NCBI GenBank assembly: GCA_964384485.1
Contig: CAYLLE010000005.1
Coordinates: 4,258 to 68,257, forward strand
Direction: 5' to 3'
Length of the DNA stretch: 64,000 nucleotides
Source of the DNA: an uncultured Spirochaetales bacterium
GTDB taxonomy: Bacteria; Spirochaetota; Spirochaetia; CAYLLE01
In this document: positions 6,026 to 44,264 of the stretch, piece after piece
How positions within the stretch are numbered: position 1 is the stretch's first letter
How the letters are laid out: every line of letters begins with the position of its first letter
Position numbers and translations under genes: made by a program
Notes under the pieces: model-generated
Databases searched by the model: none
What the model was told of the DNA's origin: nothing
The model's input: the letters and a program-made list of their open reading frames with translations, nothing else

Positions 6026-7007
6026 TCTTCGGCGGCTCCTGGCTATTCACCGAATTCCCCGGCTTAAAGGATCTGAAAAACTGATCCTTGCCGACCTTAT
6101 TGACACCTCCGAAAAATTATTGAAGATAACCGCGGGAGAAATTCGGAAGATGACCGGAAAAATGATTCCGGAAAAATTGTGGAATCCCCGCCGATTTCTT
6201 GAGCAGGCCGACCGGGACCGAAATTACTTGACAATTAAGGGAATTACTTACACCTTCTATTGGGATTCCGGTTATCCTCCCCAATTGCGGGAAATTTACG
6301 ATCCGCCTTTCGGTCTTTTTACCGCGGGGAGTATGCCTGTTACCGATCTGCCTGCTCTCGGTATTGTAGGTACTAGAAAACCCGGACCGGCGGGAATTCA
6401 GGCCGCGTACGCACTTGGGAAAGACGCTGTACGGGCGGGAATTCCGGTGATTTCCGGGTTGGCTCTGGGTATTGACGGTGCCGCACACCGGGGAGTACTC
6501 GACGGCGGAGGAAAAACCGCGGCGGTTCTCGGATGCGGTATTGACCGCTTTTATCCGAAGTCTCACGCGTGGCTTGCCTCCCGGATGATTAATTCCGGCG
6601 GCTGTGTGATGAGTGAATATCCGCCTGGTGAACCGCCTCTTAAGTATCACTTTCCTGAACGGAACCGGATTATTGCCGGTCTTTGCAGGGGAGTAGCCGT
6701 TATCGAAGCACCGGAAAAATCCGGGGCTTTAATAACAGCTGATTATGCCCTTGAGGAAGGGCGTGATCTTTTTGTACACTCAGCAGGTCTTAAGGGCATG
6801 AACCGGTTCGGGTGTGAAAGTCTGTTCCGGCAGGGTGCTCCGGTCATAAGCGCGTTTTCCGATATCGCCCGGCTGTGGGGGCTTGAAATCAAAGAGCCCT
6901 TAGAGGTGCGGAGAGGGTGGAGCGGCGGAAGCAGTGCTGCCAGTACCGCTGATGCGGGAAAGCAGGCCGCGGATGATCTGAAAAATGAATTATTTTGTCC
7001 GAAATAA
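6018..7007 (+). CDS. dprA: DNA-processing protein DprA/Smf
   Basis: IVGTRK, ISGLALGIDGAAHRG, VLGCGID, FPERNRIIAGL, SGALITADYALEEGR. Confidence 0.95.
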   Translation: MDDLRRLLAIHRIPRLKGSEKLILADLIDTSEKLLKITAGEIRKMTGKMIPEKLWNPRRFLEQADRDRNYLTIKGITYTFYWDSGYPPQLREIYDPPFGLFTAGSMPVTDLPALGIVGTRKPGPAGIQAAYALGKDAVRAGIPVISGLALGIDGAAHRGVLDGGGKTAAVLGCGIDRFYPKSHAWLASRMINSGGCVMSEYPPGEPPLKYHFPERNRIIAGLCRGVAVIEAPEKSGALITADYALEEGRDLFVHSAGLKGMNRFGCESLFRQGAPVISAFSDIARLWGLEIKEPLEVRRGWSGGSSAASTADAGKQAADDLKNELFCPK

Positions 7008-7039
7008 AAAACAGGAGTTTGTATTCAGGAGATTAGTTA

Positions 7040-9175
7040 ATGGCTGCAAAAGCGAAAAAGAGCAATGAAAAAGATAAGACGCTGGTTATTGTGGAATCGC
7101 CGGCAAAAGCGAAAACTATTGAGAAATATCTCGGCTCGGGATACACCGTTGCCGCGTCTATGGGGCATCTGATTGACCTGCCTAAGTCCAGGGTGGCTAT
7201 TGATGTGGAGAATGATTTCGAACCGGAATATATAACCGTACGGGGAAAGGCTAAGATCCTCAAAGAACTGCAGAAAAAAGCTTCGAAATCCCGGAAAGTC
7301 TATCTCGCGTCTGATAACGACCGGGAAGGGGAAGCCATCTCTTATCATCTAAAAAACAGTATCAGTAAGAAAAACCCGGATCTTAAAATCGAACGTATAG
7401 TATTTAACGAAATTACTCCGAACGCGATACGGGAAGCGATTGCCAGGCCGGGAGACATTGATGCCGATAAGGTCCAGGCTCAAAAAGCGAGAAGGGTTTT
7501 GGACCGGCTAGTGGGATACAACCTGTCCCCGATCCTGTGGGAAAAGGTGAAAAACGGCCTATCCGCGGGACGGGTTCAGTCGGTGGCTCTTCGTTTGATC
7601 TGTGAGCGGGAAGCGGAAGTCGAAAGTTTTATTCCGGAAGAGTACTGGACCGTGGAAGCAGAACTTAAAAAAGGGAAATCAGCTTTCGCGGCCGCTTTGA
7701 TAAAATACAAGAACGAAAAGATTGATATCAAAAATGAAGAACAGGCAAAGAAGGTAGTTTCCGATCTTGAGGGAAAAGAGGTTATAGTAACAAAGCTCAA
7801 GGAGACAGAGAAATCCCTGAAGCCGAAGCCTCCTTTTAATACATCCCAGCTCCAGCAGGCTGCTGCGAATAGGCTGGGATTTACGTCCCGGAAAACCATG
7901 CAGATCGCCCAGCAGCTTTATGAAGGGATCACCATCGGGAAAAATCCGGTAGGTCTTATCACCTACATGCGGACCGACTCGACAAGGATCTCTGAGACGG
8001 CTTTGAATGATGTGCGGGAATACATCAAAGAGAAGTTTCCGAAGGATCTGCCGGAACAGCCGCTGCGGTACAGTCCGAGCCAGGGGGCGCAGGATGCCCA
8101 TGAAGCGATCCGGCCTACTTATGTGACGTATGCTCCCTCCGATATCAAGGAGTATCTTACCAAGGACCAGCACAAGCTTTACTCCATCATCTGGGAACGG
8201 TTTGTGGCCTGCCAGATGAAAAACGCCCGGACAAAAACCATTTCGGTGGATCTGAAAGTCGGAGAAGATGAGACCGGAACCCTCCGGGCTTCCCACACCG
8301 TCACGGTCTTCCCCGGGTTCCATCGTGTTTTAAAAATGCTCGCGTCTAAGGACAAGTCCAAAAAGATCCCCTCCATGAAAGAGGGCGATGTCTTTACCGA
8401 GGCTGTATACAGTCCGGAGCAGCATTTTACCTCCGGACCTCCCCGGTTTACCGATGCCAGTATCGTAAAAACTTTGGAAGAAAAGGGTATCGGCCGGCCG
8501 TCGACCTACGCGCCGATTATTTCGGTGTTATTGGACCGGTATTACGTGGTGCGCCGGAGCCGTCAGCTCATTCCGACGACTTTGGGAAGAATCATCAATG
8601 ATATCCTTACGAAATCGTTTCCCGATGTGGTGGATGTAAATTTTACGGCGGAAATGGAAAAAAAGCTCGATGCCGTGGAAGATAACAAGGAAGATTGGGT
8701 TTCTATTGTCAAGAATTTCTACCAGCCCTTTAAAGATCAGGTTGAACATGTTTCCGAGACTATGGAGTCGATTAAAGGAGTGATGGATGAAGAAACCGAA
8801 TATAAATGTGAAAAATGCGGCAGGCCGATGATCAAAAAACTCGGCCGCTACGGATTTTTCATCGCGTGTTCCGGATTTCCGGAATGTATGAATACCAAAC
8901 CCGTACCTCTCGCGGACTGTCCGATTCCGGAATGCGACGGAAAAATTGTGGCCAGGAAAAAACAGGGCGGCAGGGGAAAGGAGTTCTACGGGTGCACCAA
9001 CTATCCGGAATGCGATTTTATTACCCATTTTAAGCCGACATCCACGAACTGCCCCCATTGCGGACGTTTTCTGGTGCAGAAAAGCGATAAAAAGCGGGGG
9101 GATTACAAGTCATGCATCAACCCGGACTGTGATTATCTCCATACCCACGGCGGCGGGGAGGAAAATGAAGGATAG
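7040..9175 (+). CDS. topA: DNA topoisomerase I
   Basis: Toprim LVIVESPAKAKTI, SDNDREGEAI, SAGRVQS, active-site ITYMRTDS, GIGRPSTYA, C-terminal C4 zinc ribbons. Confidence 0.98.
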   Translation: MAAKAKKSNEKDKTLVIVESPAKAKTIEKYLGSGYTVAASMGHLIDLPKSRVAIDVENDFEPEYITVRGKAKILKELQKKASKSRKVYLASDNDREGEAISYHLKNSISKKNPDLKIERIVFNEITPNAIREAIARPGDIDADKVQAQKARRVLDRLVGYNLSPILWEKVKNGLSAGRVQSVALRLICEREAEVESFIPEEYWTVEAELKKGKSAFAAALIKYKNEKIDIKNEEQAKKVVSDLEGKEVIVTKLKETEKSLKPKPPFNTSQLQQAAANRLGFTSRKTMQIAQQLYEGITIGKNPVGLITYMRTDSTRISETALNDVREYIKEKFPKDLPEQPLRYSPSQGAQDAHEAIRPTYVTYAPSDIKEYLTKDQHKLYSIIWERFVACQMKNARTKTISVDLKVGEDETGTLRASHTVTVFPGFHRVLKMLASKDKSKKIPSMKEGDVFTEAVYSPEQHFTSGPPRFTDASIVKTLEEKGIGRPSTYAPIISVLLDRYYVVRRSRQLIPTTLGRIINDILTKSFPDVVDVNFTAEMEKKLDAVEDNKEDWVSIVKNFYQPFKDQVEHVSETMESIKGVMDEETEYKCEKCGRPMIKKLGRYGFFIACSGFPECMNTKPVPLADCPIPECDGKIVARKKQGGRGKEFYGCTNYPECDFITHFKPTSTNCPHCGRFLVQKSDKKRGDYKSCINPDCDYLHTHGGGEENEG

Positions 9176-10079
9176 AATCGGTGAATACATCGCCTACCTC
9201 AGGGGAATCCGGAATCTCTCCGATGCCTCGGTACGGGCATACGGTAACGATCTAAGATCCTTCGCGGACTTTCTGTCCGGATGTCCCCCCGAAGAGGCTC
9301 TTCCGGGGGACATCCGCTCGTATATCGCCCATCTATCCCGGGAGCGGCTCGCAGCGGCAACAGTAAACCGTATCCTGTCGGCGATGAAGGGGTTTTACCT
9401 CTATCTCGTTGTGCATGGTCATATCGAAGCGTCCCCGCTGAACGGAATAAGAAGTCTAAAAAAATCGGCCCGTCTGCCGGATTTTCTTTTTGAAGATGAA
9501 GTCGCCGAAATACTTGATATCCCGGGGGACGATTTTACCTCCCTCAGAGACAAGGCCATCCTTGAGCTTCTCTACTCAACGGGCTGCCGGGTCTCTGAGC
9601 TTGTCCGGATTCAGGCGGATCAGGTCAGGAAAAACCGGCCGGTCCTGGTGCAGGGAAAGGGAAGCAAGGACCGGCTGGTTTTTATCGGGAAATCCGCCTT
9701 CACTGCCCTCTCCTCCTACCTTCCTCTCCGGGAAGAGCGGCTCAAACGGAGCGGGAAACCGGAAGAGAAATCGCTGTTTATAAACAGCCGGGGCGGTCCG
9801 TTGACCGCCCGGGGAGTTGCCCATATCTTGGAGAAAAGGCTTGGCGGAACGGCGGCTGGAAAAAAGGTGAGTCCCCATACCTTCCGGCACAGTTTCGCCA
9901 CACATATCCTTGACCGGGGAGCGGATATCAGGGTGGTTCAGGAGCTCTTAGGCCATGCCAGTCTTTCTACTACCCAGGTGTACACCCACTTGGGTATCGG
10001 AAAGCTCAAGGAAGTATACGCCCAGGCCCATCCCCACGGAGGGATCAGAAGATTGGAAGCAAAACAGGGAGAACGGTAG
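9165..10079 (+). CDS. xerC: Tyrosine recombinase XerC
   Basis: ATG 9165 (MKDRIG) overlaps the topA end. GCRVSE, HTFRHSFATH, LLGHASLSTTQVYTH. Confidence 0.85.
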   Translation: MKDRIGEYIAYLRGIRNLSDASVRAYGNDLRSFADFLSGCPPEEALPGDIRSYIAHLSRERLAAATVNRILSAMKGFYLYLVVHGHIEASPLNGIRSLKKSARLPDFLFEDEVAEILDIPGDDFTSLRDKAILELLYSTGCRVSELVRIQADQVRKNRPVLVQGKGSKDRLVFIGKSAFTALSSYLPLREERLKRSGKPEEKSLFINSRGGPLTARGVAHILEKRLGGTAAGKKVSPHTFRHSFATHILDRGADIRVVQELLGHASLSTTQVYTHLGIGKLKEVYAQAHPHGGIRRLEAKQGER

Positions 10080-13430: not shown

Positions 13431-15137
13431 ATGAACGAATGGTTTAAAAGATTAATCGCTAACATAAAAAGACTGTGGGGCAACTGGTCGAATACCCAGA
13501 AGATCATCTTCTTCGGGGTATTCGGGGTTGCCCTGCTTGGTATTATTCTGCTGGTTACGTTCAGCGCCCAGCCGGGTATGGTGCCGCTTCTCTACAGGTC
13601 TATCCAGAATGAAGAAGAGCTCAACTCAATTCTGTTCCGCCTGGATGAAGAAGGGGTGGAGTACCAGGTAACCGCGGACAGCCGTATTCTGGTGCCGGAC
13701 GAGCGGGTGGCTCAGCGGATGCGGTCCGTACTCACCCGGGAAGACCTGATCCCCGCCGGGACCGATCCTTGGGAATTGTTCGATGTAGACCGGTGGACCG
13801 TCACCGATTTTGAACGGAACGTGAATCTGCAGCGGGCCATTGTCAGGGAGCTGGAACAGCATATCACCGCTCTGGACTCGGTGGACGCGGTCAGCGTGAG
13901 CCTGGCAATCCCGGAAGATGAACTTTTTGCCGAAGACCAGGATCCGGTGACCGCCTCAGTTGTCATTACCCCCGCTCCCGGTTCCGATCTCGCTGAAAAC
14001 CGGAAGACCCTGCAGGGTATTGAACGGCTTATCCAGTTTGCCGTGGAAGGGCTCCAGGCTGAGAACATCATCATCACTAATCACCAGGGAGTTCAGCTGA
14101 ACGATTTCGCCGGAATGGAAGATTTTGACCGCATCAATTTGACGAAGCGGGAGATGGCCCTGAAGCGGGAATACGAACAGGGGCTTATCCGGAACATCGA
14201 AAAAGCCCTGGGAAATATTCTGAAGCCGGACCGGGTTGTTGTCCCGAACATAAACGTCGAAATAGATATGTCCAAAGTTACCGAAGACGTGGAGGAACAT
14301 TTTCCCATCACCCTGATCGAAGACAACCCCCGGACTCCCTATAGTGAATTGGAAGTAATCCCAAATGTTCCGATCAGTGAGGAAGTCTTTGAAGAAAGCT
14401 ACGAGGGACCCGGATTTAATCCGGAGGGACCTCCGGGACAGGAGGGGCAGACTCCGCCGGCCTATCGGGATCTGGAAATGGGTACCGGAACGTATGACCG
14501 GGACAACATCATAACAAACTACGAAATAAATACCCGGCTCATCTCCCGGGTTAAGAGTCCCGTGGTCGACCGGGTCACGGTTAGTGTCGCAGTCGACGGG
14601 AAATGGAGATGGGTGTATAATGAACAAGGCGATCCTGTTGTAAATCCCGACGGATCTATAGATCGGGAATATATCCCGGTCACCGATGACCAGCTGGAAA
14701 AGTTCGAGGCTCTGGTGCGGGATGCCGTCGGTTACAGCGCCGAACGGGGTGATTCTGTGACGGTGGCCCATGTTCCGTTCGACCGGAGCGAGGAGCACGG
14801 CTTAGAGGATGAAGTATACGCCCGGCGGCAGCAGATGCAGATGATCATCCTGTACGTCCTTATCGGAGTCGCCGTCCTTCTGGTCGCCTTTATCGCGTTC
14901 CGGCTCATCTCCCGGGAAGTGGAACGGCGGCGCCGGCTCCGGGAAGAAGAACTTGCCAGGCAGCATCAGGCTATGCGTGAGGCTGCCCTCCGGAGCGCGG
15001 AAGAAGAAAGCGCCGAGGTGGCCATGTCCGTGGAAGAACGGGCACGGATGGAGATGCAGGAGAACGCGATCAATATGGCCAGGGAGCATCCCGAGGATGT
15101 GGCTCAGCTCATCCGCACCTGGCTGATGGAGGAGTAA
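13431..15137 (+). CDS. fliF: Flagellar MS-ring protein FliF
   Basis: Two TM segments, ring-building domains (ELEQHITALDSVDAVSVSLAIPE, TASVVI), C-terminal PEDVAQLIRTWL. Confidence 0.96.
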   Translation: MNEWFKRLIANIKRLWGNWSNTQKIIFFGVFGVALLGIILLVTFSAQPGMVPLLYRSIQNEEELNSILFRLDEEGVEYQVTADSRILVPDERVAQRMRSVLTREDLIPAGTDPWELFDVDRWTVTDFERNVNLQRAIVRELEQHITALDSVDAVSVSLAIPEDELFAEDQDPVTASVVITPAPGSDLAENRKTLQGIERLIQFAVEGLQAENIIITNHQGVQLNDFAGMEDFDRINLTKREMALKREYEQGLIRNIEKALGNILKPDRVVVPNINVEIDMSKVTEDVEEHFPITLIEDNPRTPYSELEVIPNVPISEEVFEESYEGPGFNPEGPPGQEGQTPPAYRDLEMGTGTYDRDNIITNYEINTRLISRVKSPVVDRVTVSVAVDGKWRWVYNEQGDPVVNPDGSIDREYIPVTDDQLEKFEALVRDAVGYSAERGDSVTVAHVPFDRSEEHGLEDEVYARRQQMQMIILYVLIGVAVLLVAFIAFRLISREVERRRRLREEELARQHQAMREAALRSAEEESAEVAMSVEERARMEMQENAINMAREHPEDVAQLIRTWLMEE

Positions 15138-15141
15138 TAAT

Positions 15142-16206
15142 ATGAACAGAGGCGGTGGATCGGGTGCCCAGGCGGCTCCCGCGGGACGCAAAAGTTCAGG
15201 ACATAGAAAAGAATTAACCGGCAGGCAGAAGGCGGCAATCTTTCTGGTAACGATCGGTTCGGAAGTATCCGCAGAAATATTCAAACACCTCCGTGAAGAC
15301 GAGATCGAATCACTCACCTTCGAAATAGCCCGGCTTGAGACCATCGATTCGGAAGAGCGGGACCGGGTGCTTACCGAGTTCCAGGAACTGATGATGGCTC
15401 AGGATTTCATTACCACCGGCGGTATCGATTACGCCCGGGAGCTCCTGGAAAAATCACTGGGATCACAAAAAGCGGTGGACATCATCAACCGGCTGACATC
15501 GAGTCTGCAGGTCAGGCCTTTCGATTTTATCCGGCGGACCGATCCGTCCCATCTGCTTAACTTCATACAGACCGAGCATCCTCAGACAATCGCGCTCATT
15601 CTGGCCTTTTTGGAGCCCCAGAAGGCGTCGGTGATTCTTTCCAGTCTGGATCATGAAATTCAGTCCAACGTATCCAAACGGATCGCGACAATGGAGCGGA
15701 CCGACCCGAATGTTCTCCGGGAAGTGGAACGGGTTCTGGAGAAGAAGCTTTCTACCCTGTCCTCGGAAGATTATACCTCCGCGGGAGGAGTGGAGAGCAT
15801 CGTGGAAATCCTCAACCTGGTGGACCGGTCCACGGAGAAGGCGATTATCGAATCCTTGGAGGAAGAAGATCCGGAACTGGCGGAAGAGATCAAGAAGCGG
15901 ATGTTCATCTTCGAAGATATTGTTATGCTGGATGACCGGGCAATTCAGAAGGTTATGCGGGAAGTTGATACCGCGGAACTCGCAAAAGCGCTCAAATCGG
16001 TTGATTCCGAGGTGCAGGACAAGATTTTCCGGAACCAGTCAAAACGCGCCGCCACACTGCTCAAAGAAGATATGGAATATATGGGACCCATCCGGATGAA
16101 GGATGTGGAAGAAGCTCAGCAGAAGATCGTTTCCATTATACGGAAACTGGAAGAGCAGGGCGAAATTGTGGTTGCCCGGACCGGAGAAGACGAACTGGTT
16201 GTCTGA
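15142..16206 (+). CDS. fliG: Flagellar motor switch protein FliG
   Basis: LTGRQKAAIFL, GGIDYA, EHPQTIALIL, MFIFED, torque helix charges. Confidence 0.98.
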   Translation: MNRGGGSGAQAAPAGRKSSGHRKELTGRQKAAIFLVTIGSEVSAEIFKHLREDEIESLTFEIARLETIDSEERDRVLTEFQELMMAQDFITTGGIDYARELLEKSLGSQKAVDIINRLTSSLQVRPFDFIRRTDPSHLLNFIQTEHPQTIALILAFLEPQKASVILSSLDHEIQSNVSKRIATMERTDPNVLREVERVLEKKLSTLSSEDYTSAGGVESIVEILNLVDRSTEKAIIESLEEEDPELAEEIKKRMFIFEDIVMLDDRAIQKVMREVDTAELAKALKSVDSEVQDKIFRNQSKRAATLLKEDMEYMGPIRMKDVEEAQQKIVSIIRKLEEQGEIVVARTGEDELVV

Positions 16207-33594: not shown

Positions 33595-33608
33595 TAAGGA
33601 AAAAAGTG

Positions 33609-34811
33609 ATGGAATATTTTACGGAACAAGCATTGAGTCATCAGGAAGCTCTCAATAAAGTACAGATGAAGTACGGCGACCGGGCCCGGATAATGAACCA
33701 CCGGAGTGTCAAAATGGGCGGATTTCTCGGTCTCTTTTCCCGGGAGGGGGTGGAAATTAACGGGTACATCGCCTCGGCACCGCCGCCTAAAAAGGATTTT
33801 GATAAGCAGAAAGCGGAAATACTGGCTACGGTGCAAAAGACAAGTTCCATAGAACTGGTGCTTAAGGAAGTTCAAGCCCTCGGAGAGCGGCTCGACCGGA
33901 ATGGTTCCGGGCATGAAGAAAAGCAGAACCATCCCTCCATTATCAAGGCATCAGAACTGTTAAGCAGGAACGAATTCTCCTATACGTTTATCCGGAAATC
34001 TGAAAAATGGATGAAAAACACATTCACCCTTGAGGAGCTTGACGATTTTTTGCTTGTTCAGCAGCGTCTTGCGGAATGGATCGGCAGGCAGGTTGTTATT
34101 CACAATCCGAAAAGACGGGAAAAACCGATGGTCTTCATCATTGTAGGTCCTACCGGAGTCGGTAAAACGACGACAATAGCTAAACTGGCCGCGACCTATG
34201 CAATCGGCAACGAAAGCTCCCGCCCGAGAAAAGTCCGGATACTGACAATAGACAATTACCGGATCGGGGCTAAACAGCAGATCGAAACTTACGGTGAGAT
34301 AATGGAAATTCCGGTTTCGGCCGTAGAAACGAAGGAAGAGGTCCAGAAGTATCTCGCCCTATATGAGGATGCTGATATTATCTTTATAGATACAATCGGA
34401 AAAAGCCCCAAAGATTTTGTTAAACTGGCGGAAATGAAGGAATTGCTTCACTCCTGCGGCACAAAAGCCTCGGTGCACCTTGCCGTGAGCTCCACAACAA
34501 AGCCGGGAGATATCGAAGAAATAATTCGACAGTTTGAATCTTTCGGCTGCGAATCAATCATACTCACCAAGCTCGATGAAACCAGCCGGGTCGGGAACAT
34601 CATTAGTGTATTAGCCGAAAAAAAGAAGGAGCTTTCCTACTTTACGACCGGCCAGCGGGTTCCCCAGGATCTCGAACGGGCGACGGTCAAGGAATTGCTC
34701 CTGCGGCTGGAAGGTTTTACAATAAACAGAAATCAGTTAGAACAAGCCCTTAATCCGCCTTCTGGCGGAGAACAGGAAGATAAACGGAATAACGGAGAAA
34801 TAGATGGCTGA
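33609..34811 (+). CDS. flhF: Flagellar biosynthesis GTPase FlhF
   Basis: [32 protein letters not shown] of the SRP-type GTPase family. Confidence 0.96.
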   Translation: MEYFTEQALSHQEALNKVQMKYGDRARIMNHRSVKMGGFLGLFSREGVEINGYIASAPPPKKDFDKQKAEILATVQKTSSIELVLKEVQALGERLDRNGSGHEEKQNHPSIIKASELLSRNEFSYTFIRKSEKWMKNTFTLEELDDFLLVQQRLAEWIGRQVVIHNPKRREKPMVFIIVGPTGVGKTTTIAKLAATYAIGNESSRPRKVRILTIDNYRIGAKQQIETYGEIMEIPVSAVETKEEVQKYLALYEDADIIFIDTIGKSPKDFVKLAEMKELLHSCGTKASVHLAVSSTTKPGDIEEIIRQFESFGCESIILTKLDETSRVGNIISVLAEKKKELSYFTTGQRVPQDLERATVKELLLRLEGFTINRNQLEQALNPPSGGEQEDKRNNGEIDG

Positions 34812-35679
34812 TCAGGCAGAAACGTTACGGGAAATGATGAAAAACAAGGGATCCTCAAACGGATCCGGAGGTACCAGGATCATTACGGTTGCCAGCGGAA
34901 AGGGCGGAGTAGGTAAAACAAACATTTCAACAAACCTCGCCATTGCTTATGCCAAACTCGGAAAGAAGGTCATATTGATGGACGCTGACCTGGGATTGGC
35001 AAATGTGAATGTGGTTCTTGGAATCATTCCGAAGTACAACCTTTATCATCTAATCCGAAAACAGAAGAAACTCGACGAAATAATTATGGATACGGATTAC
35101 GGTATCAGGATTGTAGCCGGCGCGAGCGGGTTCGCGAAAATCGCGAATCTGACTGAGGAAGAGCGGCAATCTTTCATACAGGAGTTATCGAAACTCTCCA
35201 GCGCGGACATAATCATAATTGACACTTCCGCCGGAGTTTCCGCGAATGTTCTCTCCTTTGTCGCGGCAGCGGATGAGGCCGTCATCGTTACAACACCCGA
35301 ACCTACAGCCATCACCGACGCTTACGGAATAATAAAAATTATTGCTACCGAAATTGATAATCTTGGACTCAGCCTGAAACTTGTCGTAAACCGGGTAAAA
35401 TCGGTGACGGAAGGAAAGCGGGTAGCGGAGCGGGTTATAAATATTGCCGGACAGTTTCTGAATCTGAAAGTTGAATATCTCGGATATGTTTATGAAGATC
35501 CGGTAGTTCATAACGCGGTACTGAAACAGAAGCCGTTTCTGATTGTAGATTCCAAGAGTAAGGCTGCGAATTGTGTCCATCATATTGTGAGTAAGCTGGA
35601 AAAGGTAAGTTATACCGAAGGAGGCGGCATTTCTAAGTTTTTGAAACGTCTATTCGGGGCACAGCAGGCAGGAAGGTGA
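34804..35679 (+). CDS. flhG: MinD-like ATPase FlhG
   Basis: Deviant Walker A SGKGGVGKT, DADLGLAN, TTPEPTAITDAY; overlaps the flhF end. Confidence 0.93.
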   Translation: MADQAETLREMMKNKGSSNGSGGTRIITVASGKGGVGKTNISTNLAIAYAKLGKKVILMDADLGLANVNVVLGIIPKYNLYHLIRKQKKLDEIIMDTDYGIRIVAGASGFAKIANLTEEERQSFIQELSKLSSADIIIIDTSAGVSANVLSFVAAADEAVIVTTPEPTAITDAYGIIKIIATEIDNLGLSLKLVVNRVKSVTEGKRVAERVINIAGQFLNLKVEYLGYVYEDPVVHNAVLKQKPFLIVDSKSKAANCVHHIVSKLEKVSYTEGGGISKFLKRLFGAQQAGR

Positions 35680-35732
35680 AACTTGACGGGATGGCGATTT
35701 TACCATAATCTGGAGATAAGGAGCGGTTCCGG

Positions 35733-36488
35733 ATGCCCGAGAACTTAAATTGGAAGATCGTTGCAGGCGCCGCGGCTGGTGCTTTTCTCATCGCCTTTAT
35801 AATCGCGGGTGTTGCTGGAGTGGGCTTCGGCAAGATGATCCTGCGCGGTTTTTTAGGCGCTCTAGTGTTCGGGGCTCTCGGGGCGGGATTAAGCATTGTA
35901 ATTGCCCGGTTCCTTCCTGAATTACTGACACCTCAGGAACAGACCTCTGCGGAAGAAGATTTTAAGCCGAAAGAAACCGGCAGAAATGTAGATGTTGTAG
36001 TGGAAAATGATGAAGAAATCGGAGCGGGCGTCTACAATTTAGAAGTTGCAGATGACGAAGAGCTAGAAGAAATTGCAGGTGACTCCACCGGGGATTCCGA
36101 AGAACCCGCAGCTGATTTGGAACCGGCGGAAGATCTTCCGGAGAGCGGGGAAGCTGGTTCCGGTGAAAATGTGAACTTCAATGAAGATACAGATGATTCT
36201 CTGGTTGAAGAGGTAGAAGAACTGTCTCCGGAAGAGGACGATTCAGAAGAATTCCGGGAAAGTATTGCAGCCGAAACAGTCGAGCCGGATGATGATGTTG
36301 AAAATCTGCCGGATGTAGACCGGTTTTCCGGATCTTTTCAGGATACTCTGGAACAGGACGAGGAAAACGAGCAGGAAGAACCGCCCCGGAAGCAGTTTTC
36401 TCCGGAACAGGAAAATCCGTTTCCTGATCAGGATCCGGAAACAATGGCACGGGCTATCCGGACAGCATTAAAGAGAGATTCCGAATGA
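35733..36488 (+). CDS. Hypothetical membrane protein (2 TM, acidic disordered tail, FliF-C-like terminal peptide)
   Basis: Two N-terminal hydrophobic helices, an Asp/Glu-rich tail, C-terminus DPETMARAIRTALKRD; between flhG and fliA. Confidence 0.8.
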   Translation: MPENLNWKIVAGAAAGAFLIAFIIAGVAGVGFGKMILRGFLGALVFGALGAGLSIVIARFLPELLTPQEQTSAEEDFKPKETGRNVDVVVENDEEIGAGVYNLEVADDEELEEIAGDSTGDSEEPAADLEPAEDLPESGEAGSGENVNFNEDTDDSLVEEVEELSPEEDDSEEFRESIAAETVEPDDDVENLPDVDRFSGSFQDTLEQDEENEQEEPPRKQFSPEQENPFPDQDPETMARAIRTALKRDSE

Positions 36489-36561
36489 TGATTTTTAAGA
36501 GGAGAGGATGTTCCGCGGAGCGGCACCGATTACTCCATTCAGACGGGAAGGTATGTTAATT

Positions 36562-37350
36562 ATGAGCGAAAACGTTACCGCCGAAAAAAAAGAAGAAGAA
36601 CTTTGGCATCAATATAAAAAGAAGAAAGATTCTAAGTTAAGAGATTATTTTGTAAAAAAATATGCTCCTTTAGTAAAGTATGTAGCGGGTAAGGTGGCAG
36701 TTGGGATGCCGAGCAACGTGGAGTTTGACGATCTTGTCGGATACGGTGTTTTCGGTCTCTTTGACGCGATCGAAAAGTTTGATCCCGCGAAGCATGTAAA
36801 ATTTAAAACCTATGCCGTCACTCGGATCCGGGGCGCAATCTTTGATGAGCTCCGCTCCATTGACTGGGTACCCAGATCGGTCAGGCAGAAAGCCCGGCAG
36901 GTAGAAGAATCGGTACGGAAACTTGAATCCTCCCTTGGAAGACCCGCCACGGATAAAGAAATCGCGAAAGATATGGGAATGTCCTCAAAGGATTTCGAAA
37001 AAATGATGATGAAGATCAGCGGGACATCAATTCTATCCCTGAATGAGGTGTGGTACAGCGGAGATGAGAACGACAAAATTTCAATTTCCGACAGTATCGA
37101 ATCTCCGCAGAGTCTTAATCCCGACACGATCGTCGAAAAGGATGAAATAAAACGGGTTATTATAGAAGCAATCAACGAACTTCCGGACAAAGAGAAGAAG
37201 GTGCTTGTTCTATATTATTATGAAGATTTAACGCTAAAAGAAATCGGGCAGGTTCTCGAAGTAACAGAATCTAGAATATCTCAGCTCCACACAAAAGCAA
37301 TCATGCGGCTCCGGGCAAAACTGACCAATATCAAGAAAGGAATCATGTAG
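36562..37350 (+). CDS. fliA: RNA polymerase sigma28 factor FliA/WhiG
   Basis: [32 protein letters not shown], region 4 [20 protein letters not shown]. Confidence 0.96.
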
Positions 37351-37362
37351 TCAGGAGAATCT

Positions 37363-39324
37363 ATGGGGAAAACAGTCAGTTTTAATGAAATCCGGGAATA
37401 CATGGAAACGCAGGCCGAGGAAGACCGGAAGCGCAACTATGTTACCGTTACGGCTGATTCCCTGGATGATGCCCTGAATCAGGCATCCGTTGAGCTTGGT
37501 GTGCCTATAAAAAAAATCGAATACGAAATAATCGAGAAAGGGGCTAAAGGTCTCCTCGGAATGGGGAAGAAAAGTTTTCTCATCATGGCCTACACGGCAC
37601 GGGAAGAAAGCGAGGTATCCGAAGAAGATATCGGTATAGATTTCGGAACTCTGGGCGGAGGTTCTGAGGAAGCGGTAACAGACGGCAAAGCTGCTGTTCG
37701 GTTTTCGACGGATGGTATTCTGCTGAAGGTTACAAAACCCAGCCGCGGCGGAAAAAAGGTTGATGAACGGGACGCTATGGACCGGCTTTTGGAACGGCTG
37801 GGAACGACAGACCCGGTTGACACCTCCCTGGTTTCAAAGACCGTAAAACAAGCTCAGGGTGAGTTTATTAAGGTCGGCGATTTCGAGCATAATCCGGCAA
37901 ATGACGCCATGGTCACGGTGGATATTACCGATATGGAAATGAAAGCCTACCTGAATGCTACCCCTCCGGGAAAAGGCGGAACAGATCCGGAATATGATTA
38001 CATAATCACCTTCCTTCAGAACAATAATGTAGTTGAAGGGATTAAAGAAGATGAAATCCGTTCCTTTATTGAAAATCCCGTATATGGAGAGCCTATTTTG
38101 GCAGCGGAAGGGAAAGCGCCGGAAAACGGAGCTGACGCCCGGGTAGCCTACAACTTTGAAACTGATAAATCGAAAGTTAAGCTCAAAGAAAAAGACGGAA
38201 AGGTAGATTTTAAGGAACTCAATATCATCACTAATGTCGTTGAAGGTCAGGTAGTGGCTCGGAAGATTCCCGCGGAACGGGGAAAAAGCGGCAGAACGGT
38301 AACCGGTAAACTGCTCCCGGCAACAGATGGAAAAGATGTTAATATAAATGCCGGTAAAAATGTTGCAGTATCTGAAGACGGTACGGTTGCAACAGCCGAA
38401 TTGAACGGTCAGGTGGTGATCCAGGCCGGCAAGATAAATGTCGAACCGATATATGTGGTTCAGGGAGATGTGAACCTTAAAACGGGAAATATTCTTTTTC
38501 TGGGAACCGTTATCGTTAAAGGAAATGTGGAGGACGGTTTTTCCGTCAAAGCTTCCGGAAACATTGAAGTAATGGGCAGTGTCGGAAGATGCGAACTCGA
38601 CGCGGAAGGGGACATTGTCGTACATCAGGGGATTGCCGGAAAGAACTCAGGTATTGTACAGGCGGGACAGACTGTCTGGTCTAAGTTCATCGAAAACACC
38701 CGGGTAGAAGCCGGTGAACTGGTGGTTGTTTCGGACGGAATTATAAATTCGGAAGTATTTTCCGATAAAAAAATTATATGCAAAGGGAAACGGGCAAATA
38801 TCGTCGGGGGTAAACTCCGGGCGGCTTCAGAGATCAACGCAAACGCTCTGGGGTCTGTTGCCGGAATGGAGACTATTCTTGAAGTGGGATACGATCCGAA
38901 GATAAAAGAGCAAATGCTTAAGCTGGATACAGAACGGGAAGAATTAACCAAAGAACTTGATGAAATCAATCTGAACTTGTCTACGATTCAGTCGGCGGTA
39001 AAGAAGACCAAAAAGAAGCTGAGTCCGGATAAGAAGGAAGCCCTGGACAGAATGCTGAAACGGGCAAAAGAAATATCGGCCCGTATAAGCGAAATTGACA
39101 CCGACCGGGAAGAAAAAAAGCAGTATCTTTCTCAGCTGCAAATGGACGGCCGTATTTCAGCATCCGGAAAAGTGTATCCGGGTGTAAAAATCAGCATAAA
39201 AGATGCTTTTCTGGAAGTCCGGAACGAGTTCAAATCCGTCACCTTTATTTCCGAAGCGGGTAATGTTAAAATTTCGAAATACATAGAATCGGAGGAAGAT
39301 ACTGATCTGATTCGCAAGGATTGA
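37363..39324 (+). CDS. FapA (DUF342) family protein with N-terminal Jag_N-like domain
   Basis: N-terminal ADSLDDALNQASVELG...EIIEKGAKGLLGMG, then a DUF342 beta-helix (GDVNLKTGNILFLGTVIVKGNV) and GKVYPGV. Confidence 0.85.
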   Translation: MGKTVSFNEIREYMETQAEEDRKRNYVTVTADSLDDALNQASVELGVPIKKIEYEIIEKGAKGLLGMGKKSFLIMAYTAREESEVSEEDIGIDFGTLGGGSEEAVTDGKAAVRFSTDGILLKVTKPSRGGKKVDERDAMDRLLERLGTTDPVDTSLVSKTVKQAQGEFIKVGDFEHNPANDAMVTVDITDMEMKAYLNATPPGKGGTDPEYDYIITFLQNNNVVEGIKEDEIRSFIENPVYGEPILAAEGKAPENGADARVAYNFETDKSKVKLKEKDGKVDFKELNIITNVVEGQVVARKIPAERGKSGRTVTGKLLPATDGKDVNINAGKNVAVSEDGTVATAELNGQVVIQAGKINVEPIYVVQGDVNLKTGNILFLGTVIVKGNVEDGFSVKASGNIEVMGSVGRCELDAEGDIVVHQGIAGKNSGIVQAGQTVWSKFIENTRVEAGELVVVSDGIINSEVFSDKKIICKGKRANIVGGKLRAASEINANALGSVAGMETILEVGYDPKIKEQMLKLDTEREELTKELDEINLNLSTIQSAVKKTKKKLSPDKKEALDRMLKRAKEISARISEIDTDREEKKQYLSQLQMDGRISASGKVYPGVKISIKDAFLEVRNEFKSVTFISEAGNVKISKYIESEEDTDLIRKD

Positions 39325-39645: not shown

Positions 39646-40140
39646 ATGAATCTTCTAATCACTTTAGCGGTCAATCTACTGCTGATGGCAGTTTTCTTTA
39701 TATTTATCACGAAAAGAATGGAACGGCGGTTCAGTACCGAATTATTTCTGGAGGATGTCCGGAAGGAAGTTGAAGGTATTATTGTCGAATTGAACGGTAC
39801 CACGGACCGGAATATCGCGCTTGTGGAAGACAGGATTCAAACTTTAGGAGAAATCTTGCGGAACGCCGATAAAAAAATAGAGATTCTGAACAGGGAATCG
39901 CGGCGTAAGGTAACCAGCGATTTCCGGTACAACGATATTTTAAAGCGGAATCCTCCTTCCGAACCGCCGTCTTCTCGCGTAAAGAGAGAGGAGAAAGAAG
40001 CACCCGGGGGAGATGAAGACCTCAAGAAGCGGATACGGGAATTATACCGGCAGGGAATTTCCGCCGCCCTTATAGCAAAAAAAACAGGAGTAACCCAGGG
40101 TGAGGTGGATCTTTATATTTCCTTGATAGAAAAAAATTAA
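39646..40140 (+). CDS. SwrB/DUF2802-like membrane protein with C-terminal HTH
   Basis: N-terminal TM helix, coiled coil, HTH-like IRELYRQGISAALIAKKTGVTQGEVDLYI. Confidence 0.7.
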   Translation: MNLLITLAVNLLLMAVFFIFITKRMERRFSTELFLEDVRKEVEGIIVELNGTTDRNIALVEDRIQTLGEILRNADKKIEILNRESRRKVTSDFRYNDILKRNPPSEPPSSRVKREEKEAPGGDEDLKKRIRELYRQGISAALIAKKTGVTQGEVDLYISLIEKN

Positions 40141-40157: not shown

Positions 40158-41876
40158 ATGAAACAGGTGATAGGCATCGACTTAGGTACGACAAATTCTG
40201 CCATGGCATTTATGGATGGTGATGAACCCAAGCTAATTCCCAATAACCGGGGAAGCCGCATTACCCCGTCGGTCGTAGCCTTTACTCCGGAAGGAGATGT
40301 TCTGGTCGGAGAATCGGCCAAAAACCAGGCGGCTGTAAACGCGGAGGGGACAGTTTCGGCTGTTAAACGAGCCATGGGAACGGACCGTGTTTTTAACGTC
40401 CGGGGAAAAAACTACACCCCCGTCGATATCAGTTCATTTATTTTACAGAAGATGAAATCCGACGCGGAAGCATACCTGGGAGAGCCGATTACTGAGGCGG
40501 TCATTACCGTTCCGGCTTACTTCTCCGAACCTCAGCGCCGCGCAACAGTTGAGGCCGGAAAAAAAGCCGGTCTTGATGTCAGGCGGGTCCTGAATGAGCC
40601 CACCGCGGCAGCTCTGGCATACGCGCACCGCATGACCGAAGAGAAGCGCATCCTGGTGTATGATCTTGGGGGCGGAACCTTCGATGTAACGTGTCTGGCA
40701 AAGGAAGAAAACCGGTTCGTTGTCAAATCAACCGGAGGCGACCCTTTTTTGGGGGGACTGGATTTTGACAGACTCCTCCTTAAACGGGTTCTCGAATCGT
40801 TCCGGAAACAGACGAATCTTCCCCTTGAAGAAGATCCGGTTATTCTTCAGCAGCTGAATGAACAGGTTGAATCTGCGAAAAAAGAACTTTCTTCCAGGGA
40901 ATCAGCGACCATTTCCCTTCCTTTTATTTCCGGAACGGGGAAACCACTCCATCTCACGTGCTCAGTGTCCCGGCGGGAATTTGATGAGATTATTGATGCT
41001 CTGGTAAAGCGTACGATAAAACGGACCCAGCGGGCTGTAGCCGACGCGGGATTCGGGATCTCCGGCATCGACTTTCTGGTCCTTTCCGGCGGAAGTTCCC
41101 GGATTCCCCTGGTCCGCCGGTATTTAGACAGAATTCTCTCTCCGAAACAGGCAAATCAGGTAAATCCGGATGAAATTGTTGCTATGGGTGCTGCTGTACA
41201 GGCATCGATGCTGAATGGCTCCGATTCATCACTGCATGAAGAAATAATCCTTAAAGAAATAACATCGTATCACCTGGGAGTCGAAATTGAAGGCGACACC
41301 TTTGTCCCCATAATACCTAAAAATAGTTCTATTCCCGCGAGGGCGGAGAAAATATTTACAACGGTTGAAGATAATCAATCCTCCGTTGAAATCCATGTGA
41401 TGCAGGGACAAAGTGAAATTGCTTCTAACAATAGATCACTCGGAAGATTTCTGCTTTCCGGTATCCGGGAAGGCCGAAAGGGACAGCCCCGTATTTCTGT
41501 TGCTTTTTCCATTGATGCGGACGGGTTGGCCGATGTCGGAGCCTTCGACCTCGATACAGGAGTTCAGCAGCGGATAAGCATTACACCCCTTCTGGCAAGA
41601 GGAGAAAACATCGCGGAAGATAAACCCCGCGATGAAAACGGCAGATTAAGAGCGGCATTTCTACGGGACCGTCTTTTCCGGCTGAAGGAGACGGGTAAAC
41701 AGGAACTGGGTCCTGATTTTTGTGATGAAATTTCCGAGCTTTTAATGTTAACCGATACCGCAATCGGCGAAAATGATGTAAAATCCATGAAAGAGTGTCA
41801 GCTGGCCATGGAAACTCTTATCGGAGAAATTGAAGCGGTAATAGGAAAGGAGGAAGCAGAATATGGAGGCGCTTAA
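40158..41876 (+). CDS. Hsp70 family chaperone (atypical DnaK paralogue)
   Basis: GIDLGTTNS, ITVPAYF, NEPTAAALAY, YDLGGGTFDV, LSGGSSRIP; substrate-binding beta domain and a short lid. Confidence 0.95.
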   Translation: MKQVIGIDLGTTNSAMAFMDGDEPKLIPNNRGSRITPSVVAFTPEGDVLVGESAKNQAAVNAEGTVSAVKRAMGTDRVFNVRGKNYTPVDISSFILQKMKSDAEAYLGEPITEAVITVPAYFSEPQRRATVEAGKKAGLDVRRVLNEPTAAALAYAHRMTEEKRILVYDLGGGTFDVTCLAKEENRFVVKSTGGDPFLGGLDFDRLLLKRVLESFRKQTNLPLEEDPVILQQLNEQVESAKKELSSRESATISLPFISGTGKPLHLTCSVSRREFDEIIDALVKRTIKRTQRAVADAGFGISGIDFLVLSGGSSRIPLVRRYLDRILSPKQANQVNPDEIVAMGAAVQASMLNGSDSSLHEEIILKEITSYHLGVEIEGDTFVPIIPKNSSIPARAEKIFTTVEDNQSSVEIHVMQGQSEIASNNRSLGRFLLSGIREGRKGQPRISVAFSIDADGLADVGAFDLDTGVQQRISITPLLARGENIAEDKPRDENGRLRAAFLRDRLFRLKETGKQELGPDFCDEISELLMLTDTAIGENDVKSMKECQLAMETLIGEIEAVIGKEEAEYGGA

Positions 41877-42528
41877 TCAGGCCCAGGAACACCGCTGCCT
41901 CAAGCTCCTCGGCCTTTCCGGTAACGCCAGCACGGAAGACATAAAACGCGCCTTCCGTATGCTGGCAAAAAAAATGCATCCCGATGCGAATCCGGCGGGG
42001 GGGAACCCTTCGAAGTTCGCGGAAATCAGGAACGCGTATGATTATCTGACCCGAAACCGGAAACAGACAATCACCTTTCCCCGGGAAAGAAGCACCTCCG
42101 GCCGGAGTTACCGGCCGAACAAAAAAGAACCCGGTATCTTTTCCTGGGGCGAAGATCTGTTGACTTCCGCGGTTCCTTCCGTCCGTATTTTTGCCGCCAG
42201 GGCCCTTGGGAACAGCGGAAAAAGAGCGGCTTACACCTTTTTGCGGAAGGCTCTCTATGACACGGATGAATTAGTAGTGCAGGAAGCGGTTAAAAGCATC
42301 GGTCAGCTCGAAATCACGCAGTCTGCCGGTGAATTGGCGTCGCTCTACAATCGCTCCGATCGGGAGATGAAATTACATATCCTGTCTGCGGTTGAAAAAA
42401 TGGGTCATCTGAAAAATTTTCAGAATCTAATTTTGACCGGCATAAAAGATATTGATCCGGATGTCAGAAGAAAGTTTATGAAACTTTTCTTCCGGTACCG
42501 GAGCGAAACTGGAGAAACAAGAAACTGA
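41863..42528 (+). CDS. J-domain protein with HEAT repeats
   Basis: N-terminal J domain with intact HPD (AKKMHPDAN) and HEAT-like repeats (VRIFAARALG, VVQEAVKSIG); no zinc finger or G/F region. Confidence 0.88.
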   Translation: MEALNQAQEHRCLKLLGLSGNASTEDIKRAFRMLAKKMHPDANPAGGNPSKFAEIRNAYDYLTRNRKQTITFPRERSTSGRSYRPNKKEPGIFSWGEDLLTSAVPSVRIFAARALGNSGKRAAYTFLRKALYDTDELVVQEAVKSIGQLEITQSAGELASLYNRSDREMKLHILSAVEKMGHLKNFQNLILTGIKDIDPDVRRKFMKLFFRYRSETGETRN

Positions 42529-44264
42529 TGGATCAGCAGAACACGGGCCGGGATCATCAAAGTCTCTGGCAGATATTTATACGGGATTCCCGGAACTTTA
42601 TGGAAACTCTTGACACCTCGGTCCCGGAGCTATCAGCATCGAATGAACAGCAGCCGGACATTATTTCGCGGATTTTCCGGGCTCTCCATTCACTTAAATC
42701 GGAAGCCGATTTTTTGGAAATAGACGATGTCGCGGCTGCCGCGGATTCGGTGGAGGACGCGCTGAGTGAACTGAAGTCCGGTGGAGATCCGTCGGAAGTT
42801 GAAAGGCGATATGCCGGTTTGCGTGATATCCTTAATAAAAAGCTGAAAAAGCGGGGAATAGGGTTCCGGTCCCTAACCAAGCTCGAGTCGGAACGGACGG
42901 AAGAGGCTCTGGAACGGAAGGAACAGCTCTATACTGTCCGGTACACAGCCGCGGAAGATGAAGAAGTCCCGTCCGCCAGGCTGTACCTGGCCCTGGACCG
43001 GCTGGAACGTATCAGGAATGTTATTGCCGTCGAACCGGCAGCGGAGAAACTCGAGGAAGCAAATCTCAGGTCCATTACAATTCTTTTTTCACAGGGCGGA
43101 AAGATTCCGAACGATGACGAAATGCCCCAGGTCGACCGGCTGGATATGGCAGGACCCCTTTTTTACGATCCCCATGCCCCTTCGGACCAGTACCAGGGAG
43201 TGGAAGGAGATAATCCGGATGACACGGTACAGACAGCTCCCATCCCCATTGAGGGAGGAAGACGGGGGTATCTCGCGGAAGATTTTCAGAAGACCCTTTT
43301 TCTAACGGCATCATTAATACAGAAAACTACGTTTCTTGAAGGAACAATCAGGGAAAGAACGGTAAGGAATATTTTCGGTCTGGATACTCATCTCTGCGGC
43401 AGGGAAAAGATCCAGCTTCAGCCGGTATTTGATGAACTTTTAGACCGTGGAAAGAGGATGGCAGCGGAAGCGGGAAAAAATATCAGATTTACCTTTTCCG
43501 GCAAATCCGTTGCTGTTTTTCCGCCGATTGCCGAACTGTTGACCGAAATCATCATTCATCTTCTTAAAAACTGCATCGTACACGGTATTGAATCACCGGA
43601 AAATCGGAAAGAGCTGAACAAAAATCCGGAAGGCTCTGTTGAAATCGGTATCATAAGAAAAAACGGGATAGATACTATCAGCGTAAAAGACGACGGCAGA
43701 GGTATATCCGAAAAAGAGGTAAGGGAAGCCTCGGGCAACCGGGATTCACCGGTCCTGGACATAATTGCCGCGCCCGGTTTTACCACCAGACCGAAGACCG
43801 AGCGGAATTCGGGCCGGGGAGTTGGTCTCGATACGGTCCGCCATACCGTCGAGCGGCTTATGGGCGGGAAACTCGTCATGAGAACCGAACCGGGCCGAGG
43901 CACGGGATTTTTTATTTCAATCCCTGCCGATCTCCGTCCGGTCCGGTTCATCGTCTGCCGGAACGGGAATGCGTTTCTGGCGGTGCCGGCTTTCGGAATA
44001 AAGAAGTCGGAACTAACTGATCACAGCCGGGCTAAAGAATATGCCGTGGAGAACCGCTTGCGGGTTTCCGGCAGCGAATCTAAAGGCTCTGAAGGGAAGG
44101 TCCTCATGATTCATTATGCCGACGGGGCATCCGAATTCCTGCTTCTGTCGGACTCACTTGTTTCCGAGGAAGTCTCAATCATCTCTCCTCTCCGGAAGAC
44201 TAAAGTATACTCCCAGACTGCACGAAAACCGGCACTGATAGTACCGCCGTTAAAGGGAATTTGA
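42528..44264 (+). CDS. CheA-like histidine kinase (Hpt-P2-HATPase, degenerate P3 and P5)
   Basis: Hpt FRALHSLK, P2-like segment, N box HLLKNCIVHGIE, G1 DDGRGI, F box APGFTT, G2 SGRGVGLD. Confidence 0.85.
   Translation: MDQQNTGRDHQSLWQIFIRDSRNFMETLDTSVPELSASNEQQPDIISRIFRALHSLKSEADFLEIDDVAAAADSVEDALSELKSGGDPSEVERRYAGLRDILNKKLKKRGIGFRSLTKLESERTEEALERKEQLYTVRYTAAEDEEVPSARLYLALDRLERIRNVIAVEPAAEKLEEANLRSITILFSQGGKIPNDDEMPQVDRLDMAGPLFYDPHAPSDQYQGVEGDNPDDTVQTAPIPIEGGRRGYLAEDFQKTLFLTASLIQKTTFLEGTIRERTVRNIFGLDTHLCGREKIQLQPVFDELLDRGKRMAAEAGKNIRFTFSGKSVAVFPPIAELLTEIIIHLLKNCIVHGIESPENRKELNKNPEGSVEIGIIRKNGIDTISVKDDGRGISEKEVREASGNRDSPVLDIIAAPGFTTRPKTERNSGRGVGLDTVRHTVERLMGGKLVMRTEPGRGTGFFISIPADLRPVRFIVCRNGNAFLAVPAFGIKKSELTDHSRAKEYAVENRLRVSGSESKGSEGKVLMIHYADGASEFLLLSDSLVSEEVSIISPLRKTKVYSQTARKPALIVPPLKGI

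Follow-up and report, generated by a model that had tools for sequence, protein, structure and literature searches.

The window analysed here, a stretch of 64,000 nucleotides (nt) from an uncultured Spirochaetales bacterium (contig CAYLLE010000005.1, positions 4,258 to 68,257 of the forward strand), encodes at 35733..36488 (+) a protein of 251 amino acids (aa) which we identified, with very little doubt, as a Type-1 FlgV of the BB0268 family, accessory to the flagellar basal body. The open reading frame (ORF) is preceded by a ribosome-binding site read from the sequence (AAGGAG, 35718..35723 (+), 9 nt before the ATG), and its start agrees with the starts of homologues. The gene order in the window is flhA-flhF-flhG-flgV-fliA-fapA-DUF6115. 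Directly upstream of flgV lies flhG, encoding a MinD-like ATPase (34804..35679 (+); Pfam ParA/CbiA/AAA_31), and directly downstream lies fliA, encoding sigma-28 (36508..37350 (+); Pfam Sigma70 r2, r3, r4), the two neighbours also named in the initial annotation of this DNA. That annotation treated the product as an unknown membrane protein; it is instead a new orthologue of a published family, whose members have two transmembrane (TM) helices, the second of which (TM2) contains a conserved arginine (Zamba-Campero et al. 2024, PMC11607428), and whose gene always has its place in the flagellar superoperon, with flhF/flhG and sigma-28/FapA as neighbours (PMC11607428).

The assignment follows from the fit of the architecture, Arg38, Pro62 and the C-terminal peptide to the published family description, from the synteny flhF-flhG-flgV-fliA-fapA-DUF6115, and from the fact that the same profile found an ORF at the orthologous position, between flhG and fapA, in a Borrelia-like genome. 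This latter ORF encodes 169 aa (profile E = 2.2e-13), and there is no fliA at its locus, as published for Borrelia. Among genomes of the phylum the family profile had matches in 177 of 251, and in a library of 1.8 billion proteins it matched 2,279 representative clusters; homologues ranged from 140 to 380 aa in length. Among additional spirochaete loci the order FlhG-FlgV-FliA was found in 94 of 115, most of the others being interrupted by the ends of the loci. FlgV gave no Pfam match at E <= 1 and had no NCBIfam model, and we found neither a FlgV nor a spirochaete FliG in the PDB.

The structure of FlgV was predicted with AlphaFold2 (AF2) run with the family alignment. TM helix 1 (residues 7-28, 35751..35816 (+)) is hydrophobic and conserved in the alignment, and TM helix 2 (residues 32-60, 35826..35912 (+)) carries the invariant Arg38 (35844-35846), which was present in 150/150 representatives and in 19/19 close homologues. 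In the column before Phe32 some relatives have E or D where the target has Gly31, although the match of this column to the one discussed in the published description is uncertain. A juxtamembrane motif RFLPELL follows (residues 59-65, 35907..35927 (+)), of which Pro62 was kept in all 150 representatives and E63 and L64 in more than 84%. Behind it extends an acidic tail (residues 66-233, 35928..36431 (+)) that is predicted to be disordered from its composition and from a predicted local distance difference test (pLDDT) score below 50. The tail comprises 168 aa, with 62 D/E (37%) and only 7 K/R and thus a net charge of -55, so that the initial description of an acidic, probably disordered tether of about 170 aa behind two TM helices was accurate. 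Three conserved motifs are embedded in the tail, namely NVDVVV (35985-36002 (+); family form NVD[IV]V), DSLVEEVEE (36195-36221 (+)) and VENLPDVDRFSGSF (36297-36338 (+); family form [VL]DxLPD[IL]xxFxxSF), and none of them had look-alikes elsewhere in the proteome. We also asked whether the other motifs of the FlgV tail might mimic further flagellar peptides such as FliM-N EIDAL, and rejected this since their position-specific scoring matrices (PSSMs) matched unrelated proteins only.

The protein ends ...DQDPETMARAIRTALKRDSE* in a conserved C-terminal helix, QDPETMARAIRTALKRDS (36429..36482 (+)), which AF2 predicted at residues 235-250 with a pLDDT of 71-76 and which carries the family motif. 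Apart from short turns at residues 62-65 and 195-197 (AF2/DSSP) this helix is the sole substantial ordered element on the cytoplasmic side. It was also the best-conserved cytoplasmic element of FlgV (about 150 representatives, 49 families). Among 147 representatives with pairwise identity below 50% the terminus followed the consensus [QE]-D-P-[EA]-x-[IMVL]-A-[KR]-A-[IVL]-[RQ]-T-[VMLIWFA]-[LM]-K-[RK]-D. Counting from the proline as position 0, Pro0 occurred in 86%, Ala4 and Ala6 in 95% each and Thr9 in 99% of these sequences, while position 10 varied (V47, M28, L21, I18, W15, F11, A6), the Ala of the target being the rare small extreme. Lack of conservation in orthologues was the first of two outcomes that the initial annotation had named as refuting its proposal. 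The motif was clearly conserved, being found in 18 close homologues and in 49 of the phylum's families, with Leptospira-like, Brachyspira-like and Borrelia-like genomes among them, and its distance from the C-terminus was 3-8 residues in 42 of 43 families. The exact form of the peptide looks like a signature of the Spirochaetota, because a strict DNA pattern of the motif matched only spirochaete-type flhG-flgV-fliA loci in scans of species genomes and metagenomes, with 119 of 120 metagenome matches being FlgV. As the helix is both the best-conserved and the only substantial ordered cytoplasmic element of the protein, it probably serves as a protein-docking motif.

A candidate for what this motif docks on was suggested by its likeness to the C-terminus of FliF, the protein of the membrane-supramembrane (MS) ring. 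The window encodes FliF at 13431..15137 (+) (Pfam YscJ_FliF, YscJ_FliF_C), ending ...HPEDVAQLIRTWLMEE*, and its terminus with the FliG-binding helix PEDVAQLIRTWL (15090-15125 (+)) could be aligned to the crystallised FliF C-terminal tail (FliF-C) of Thermotoga maritima (5tdy_A). The FliF terminus was nearly invariant among 120 homologues and 49 genomes. The core of the FlgV helix, PETMARAIRTAL (36435-36470 (+)), can be aligned to PEDVAQLIRTWL without gaps, with 7 of 12 residues identical (P, E, A, I, R, T and L) and Trp replaced by Ala, as the initial annotation had noticed. When a 12-column PSSM of the FlgV motif, built from 138 representatives outside the clade of the target, was scanned over 1.99 million 12-mers from the six-frame ORFs of the genome, the FliF terminus ranked first among non-self windows (22.4 bits, next 20.1). 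After removal of the Trp-bearing FlgV sequences FliF held third to fifth place overall, and among the 134,000 C-terminal windows it was still at the top. In the reverse scan, with a PSSM of 49 FliF termini from across the phylum, the terminus of the target FlgV was the best non-FliF window by a narrow margin (18.7 vs 18.4 bits), and for 43 other FlgV termini the equivalent rank had a median of 57 in 2 million. PSSMs of four other conserved FlgV motifs returned only unrelated and no flagellar proteins, which argues that the method is not biased towards the latter. Alignment of the full FlgV profile to the last 110 residues of FliF with hhalign gave a single alignment, FlgV 235-246 to FliF 554-565 (12 columns, P = 5.5e-4, probability 30%). 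The same alignment led us to reject the idea that FlgV is a FliF remnant without the ring, globally homologous to TM2 plus tail, as only these 12 columns were aligned. In the aligned register both peptides showed hydrophobic-moment angles of 303-307 degrees and thus the same amphipathic face, they have Pro0, Ala4, Thr9 and hydrophobic residues at positions 3, 7 and 11 in common, and both lie near the end of a chain tethered to the membrane, at most 3-8 residues short of its C-terminus.

Several observations weigh against reading this likeness as mimicry. Nine other 12-mers in the genome matched the FliF peptide at least as well as FlgV did (BLOSUM score 31), and we therefore rejected the significance of the pairwise match as sole evidence. 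Local searches with a HMMER hidden Markov model (HMM) ranked FliF 16th to 45th, and beyond 400th once the Trp-bearing FlgV sequences had been left out; FliF was nevertheless the best HMMER match that spanned the full FlgV motif. An HMM of FliF-C, dominated by the invariant Trp, did not recover the target FlgV among its top 300 matches. An 18-column HMM of close FlgV homologues likewise failed to retrieve FliF, in part because FliF stops three residues past the core. The residues that characterize the FliF peptide are also largely its own: Leu6 occurred in 45, Arg8 in 47 and Trp10 in all 49 of 49 genomes, and Trp10 is present in T. maritima FliF as well, whereas FlgV had Ala6 in 131 of 138 representatives, R72/Q51/K10 at position 8 and a variable hydrophobic residue at position 10. 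The target itself has Ala6, Arg8 and Ala at the position of the FliF Trp, and Trp is found there in only about 10% of the family. The FliF-C of T. maritima (5tdy_A, ...SPSDIAEIVRLWFFE) showed that Thr9 is specific to spirochaete FliF. Past the helix the residues are basic in FlgV (K[RK]D) and acidic in FliF (xEE). A single cytoplasmic helix is predicted in FlgV, whereas two FliF-C helices take part in the co-fold with FliG's N-terminal domain (FliG-N), and hhalign aligned nothing upstream of the 12 columns, leaving the first FliF-C helix without a counterpart. No covariation between the FliF and FlgV termini was detected in 49 genome pairs; a hint at position 11 (5/5) was gone after three more genomes had been added (5/8 vs 11/38). 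Each FliG-N is moreover thought to be occupied 1:1 by FliF-C in assembled motors (PMC7355467), so that there is no obvious free site. Corrected for the free choice of peptide pairs in the window, we estimated a chance probability of about 0.01-0.02 for the match. The evidence for a FliF likeness beyond chance is thus moderate, mixed and dependent on the method, and it is suggestive but not conclusive. As for the FliF-C mimic postulated in the initial annotation, the register, the amphipathic face and the C-terminal site were retained, while Leu6, Arg8, Trp10 and the first helix were without a conserved counterpart.

Two of the searches also brought up other possible functions for the helix, and both are further points against mimicry of FliF. 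The best HMMER match in the genome was KhpA (KH domain, PF13083), whose helix GRIAKAIRTIL agrees with the FlgV core in 9 of 9 residues, the core IAKAIRTxL being identical in both proteins; the motif core therefore occurs in unrelated folds. The khpA gene lies outside the window, at 6812-7066 (-) of contig C142. The identity could be taken to mean that the FlgV helix contacts nucleic acid, which would tie in with the claimed moonlighting of BB0268 as an RNA chaperone and with the in vitro annealing and unwinding of RNA reported for the Borrelia protein. We regard this as very improbable. The KhpA helix is internal to a globular RNA-binding fold and follows a GxxG loop, whereas FlgV has neither such a loop nor, by the Pfam search, a KH fold, so that only a nine-residue helix core is common to both. 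A tail with a net charge of -55 would furthermore repel RNA, FlgV is anchored in the membrane at the motor, and cross-linking in vivo recovered no RNA (PMC11607428). The recurrence of the motif core in a KH domain is nonetheless a caution that bears on the dispute over the reported RNA activity of FlgV.

A PDB-wide search with the profile of the FlgV C-terminus found no FliF chain. Its top matches were designed helical-barrel coiled coils with EIAKALR heptads, which might indicate that the helix mediates self-association of FlgV, with a small-residue heptad IAKA[IL]xT bundling neighbouring molecules into a ring or stabilising it. The near invariance of Ala4, Ala6 and Thr9 is what would be expected for tight packing of helices, and FlgV dimers and a multi-subunit ring have been described in the literature (PMC11607428 among the sources). 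The helix has only about 16 residues, however, corresponding to about two heptads, and bundling would explain neither the Pro cap nor why the position is strictly C-terminal. Self-association is therefore an unlikely role of the motif, if a less remote one than contact with RNA.

Published work on FlgV provides context that is independent of these sequence comparisons. By cryo-electron tomography both FlgV and green fluorescent protein (GFP) on its C-terminus were located at the junction of the MS ring and the cytoplasmic (C) ring, where FliF-C and FliG-N lie (PMC11607428, PMC10655999). The C-terminus itself can be assigned to this site because GFP fused to it enlarged the density at the junction in Borrelia (PMC11607428). 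For the Type-2 FlgV of Helicobacter pylori the FlgV C-terminus, FliG-N and cytoplasmic FliF were found to share one plane, and the TM helices of FlgV were predicted by AF2 to contact those of FliF (PMC10655999), while FlgV of Campylobacter jejuni co-immunoprecipitated with FliF (PMC10655999, PMC4073491). Deletion of flgV in Borrelia resulted in fewer and shorter filaments with basal bodies normal in number and structure, a phenotype resembling that of fliH or fliI deletions, and overproduction left the basal body unchanged (PMC11607428). The authors of the 2024 study stated that partners and mechanism of FlgV were unknown, and singled out the C-terminal peptide as a probable interaction site that may tether factors (PMC11607428). 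In the papers mentioning FlgV that we consulted, we found no link of this peptide to FliF-C or FliG-N.

These phenotypes conflict with the role proposed in the initial annotation, in which the peptide would capture FliG or a second FliG, as a decoy or polar tether, and together with FlhF/FlhG would set the placement or number of C rings. The FliF-like motif, the position of flgV next to flhF/flhG and the second FliG, which was correctly anticipated and is present in this genome, would all fit such a role, as would the lower number of flagella in H. pylori mutants of the Type-2 gene (PMC10655999). Yet basal-body number and structure were unchanged in both the deletion strain and the overproducer of Borrelia, the FlgV family is also found in phyla beyond Spirochaetota (PMC11607428), and a peptide that lacks Trp10 and Leu6 should compete poorly with FliF-C. 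We consider the decoy quite improbable, more so than self-association.

The resemblance of the Borrelia deletion to fliH and fliI deletions can also be read in favour of a different flagellar partner, such as the Jag_N domain of FapA, FlhG, or the export components FlhA-C and FliH/FliI. The likeness to FliF would in this case be generic for a Pro-capped amphipathic helix, and FlgV would tether the partner at the basal body, in line with what the authors of the 2024 study proposed in general terms (PMC11607428). The invariant residues of FlgV (Ala6, Thr9, Lys12, Arg/Lys13 and Asp14) are its own and, save for Thr9, not those of FliF, and the statistics of the FliF similarity depend on the method. 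The gene context is likewise compatible, since flhG nearly always flanks flgV, with fliA and fapA downstream, and the FapA of the window bears Jag_N, a protein-interaction domain. Sequence evidence, on the other hand, points to no specific alternative, and the GFP-tagged C-terminus lies at the MS/C-ring junction and not deep in the C ring with the ATPase complex (PMC11607428). A partner other than FliG-N is a serious possibility, short of even odds, only as a sum over all candidates; each of them taken singly is improbable and stands below FliG-N. Sigma-28 was disfavoured as a receptor, because the motif persists in the Borrelia-like genome that has no fliA.

We therefore favour, at a probability of roughly one in three, the reading of FlgV as a tether whose C-terminal helix is received by FliG-N. 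The shared register and the co-localisation make FliG-N the leading single candidate for the receptor, although the choice is a tentative one. In this model the FlgV hairpin would sit beside the TM helices of FliF, and the C-terminal helix, as a short peptide for docking, would hold the tail's end in place at the MS/C-ring junction, most likely on FliG-N, alone or together with FliF-C. It would do so by copying the register of the last FliF helix, with proline as N-cap, positions 3, 7, 10 and 11 hydrophobic, Ala4 and Arg/Gln8-Thr9. The acidic linker, fixed at both ends, might then form a loop that reaches the surroundings of the export gate. FlgV would have a positive role as an accessory tether, helping the basal body to reach or hold a secretion-competent state or stabilising the junction, rather than titrating FliG as a decoy. 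The positive role is suggested because the deletion leaves fewer and shorter filaments on normal basal bodies, as do fliH or fliI deletions. The strongest form of the model is doubtful: that the helix is a true mimic of the last FliF helix docking on FliG-N or on the FliF-C/FliG-N complex, and that FlgV thereby forms a second tether from membrane to rotor whose ring of strongly acidic loops, anchored twice and placed about the export gate, tunes the secretion competence of the basal body.

If the reading of FlgV as a FliG-N-bound tether is correct, the receptor of the FlgV peptide would be identified, and an accessory protein of the motor would be seen to reuse the code by which the MS ring binds the C ring. 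This would concern a recently recognised and widely distributed component of flagella. Should the FliF-like reading be wrong, a sharp peptide motif of spirochaetes and three conserved tail motifs would still be at hand for partner screens.

The remaining flagellar genes of the window complete this picture. The rotor/switch protein FliG is encoded directly after fliF (15142..16206 (+)) and was recognised by its matches to FliG chains of the PDB, among which 5tdy_B and 5wuj_B were matched in their FliG-N over residues 20-119. The second FliG of the genome lies outside the window, at 8875-9840 (-) of contig C14; it is 29% identical to the FliG of the window over residues 28-350 and therefore has an N-terminal domain. 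Upstream of flgV, flhF (33606..34811 (+); Pfam SRP54) encodes a GTPase of the signal recognition particle type and is overlapped by flhG by 8 nt. FlhG has an N-terminal motif DQAETLR, of a kind that we associate with FlhF-activating helices, and at its C-terminus an amphipathic sequence GISKFLKRLFG typical of MinD-like membrane-targeting sequences. Downstream of fliA, fapA (37363..39324 (+); Pfam FapA, FapA_N, Jag_N) encodes an alternative candidate receptor, in which Jag_N, known as the N-domain of KhpB/EloR, is N-terminal and precedes FapA_N and the FapA beta-solenoid. A DUF6115 protein (39646..40140 (+); Pfam PF19610) closes the published FlgV-sigma28-FapA sub-module. Beyond fapA and this gene we found an Hsp70 paralogue (40158-41876), overlapped by a gene for a DnaJ-plus-HEAT protein (41863-42528), and then a CheA-like kinase (42528-44264).

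Compared to Borrelia BB0268 (PMC11607428), the FlgV described here is alike in gene place, between flhG and the sigma-28/FapA sub-module, and the homology holds at profile level across the phylum. The tail is longer and far more acidic than in the FlgV of the Borrelia-like genome, flgV adjoins an intact fliA whereas Borrelia is without fliA, and Gly precedes TM2 where some relatives have an acidic residue. The Type-2 FlgV of H. pylori and C. jejuni is likewise small, has two TM helices and is encoded by a gene located between flhG and fliA, and it also forms a ring at the MS/C-ring junction (PMC10655999, PMC4073491). It differs in being without the TM2 arginine, and the relatedness of the two types is marginal (E = 0.1, PMC11607428). 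The FliF-C tail co-folds with FliG-N in T. maritima (5TDY), in H. pylori (5WUJ) and in the Salmonella C ring resolved by cryo-electron microscopy (PMC11087270). Like the FlgV peptide it presents an amphipathic helix with a Pro cap at the very C-terminus of a protein tethered to the membrane, and Arg/Gln8 is shared in addition to Pro0, Ala4, Thr9 and the hydrophobic positions 3, 7 and 11. A comparison for how FlgV might work, and for this only, is offered by SwrB of Bacillus subtilis, a small protein anchored in the membrane whose gene adjoins that of sigma-28, sigD (PMC4526659). SwrB is reported to be needed for assembly of the hook and not of the basal body, its loss is bypassed by a gain-of-function allele of FliG, and it is genetically linked to FliG and to the export gate (FliP) (PMC4526659). 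SwrB is a single-pass protein, unlike FlgV with its two TM helices, and its position corresponds in the window to that of the DUF6115 protein and not to that of FlgV. The positive tether role that we propose for FlgV would be comparable to the one that SwrB probably has through FliG in B. subtilis.

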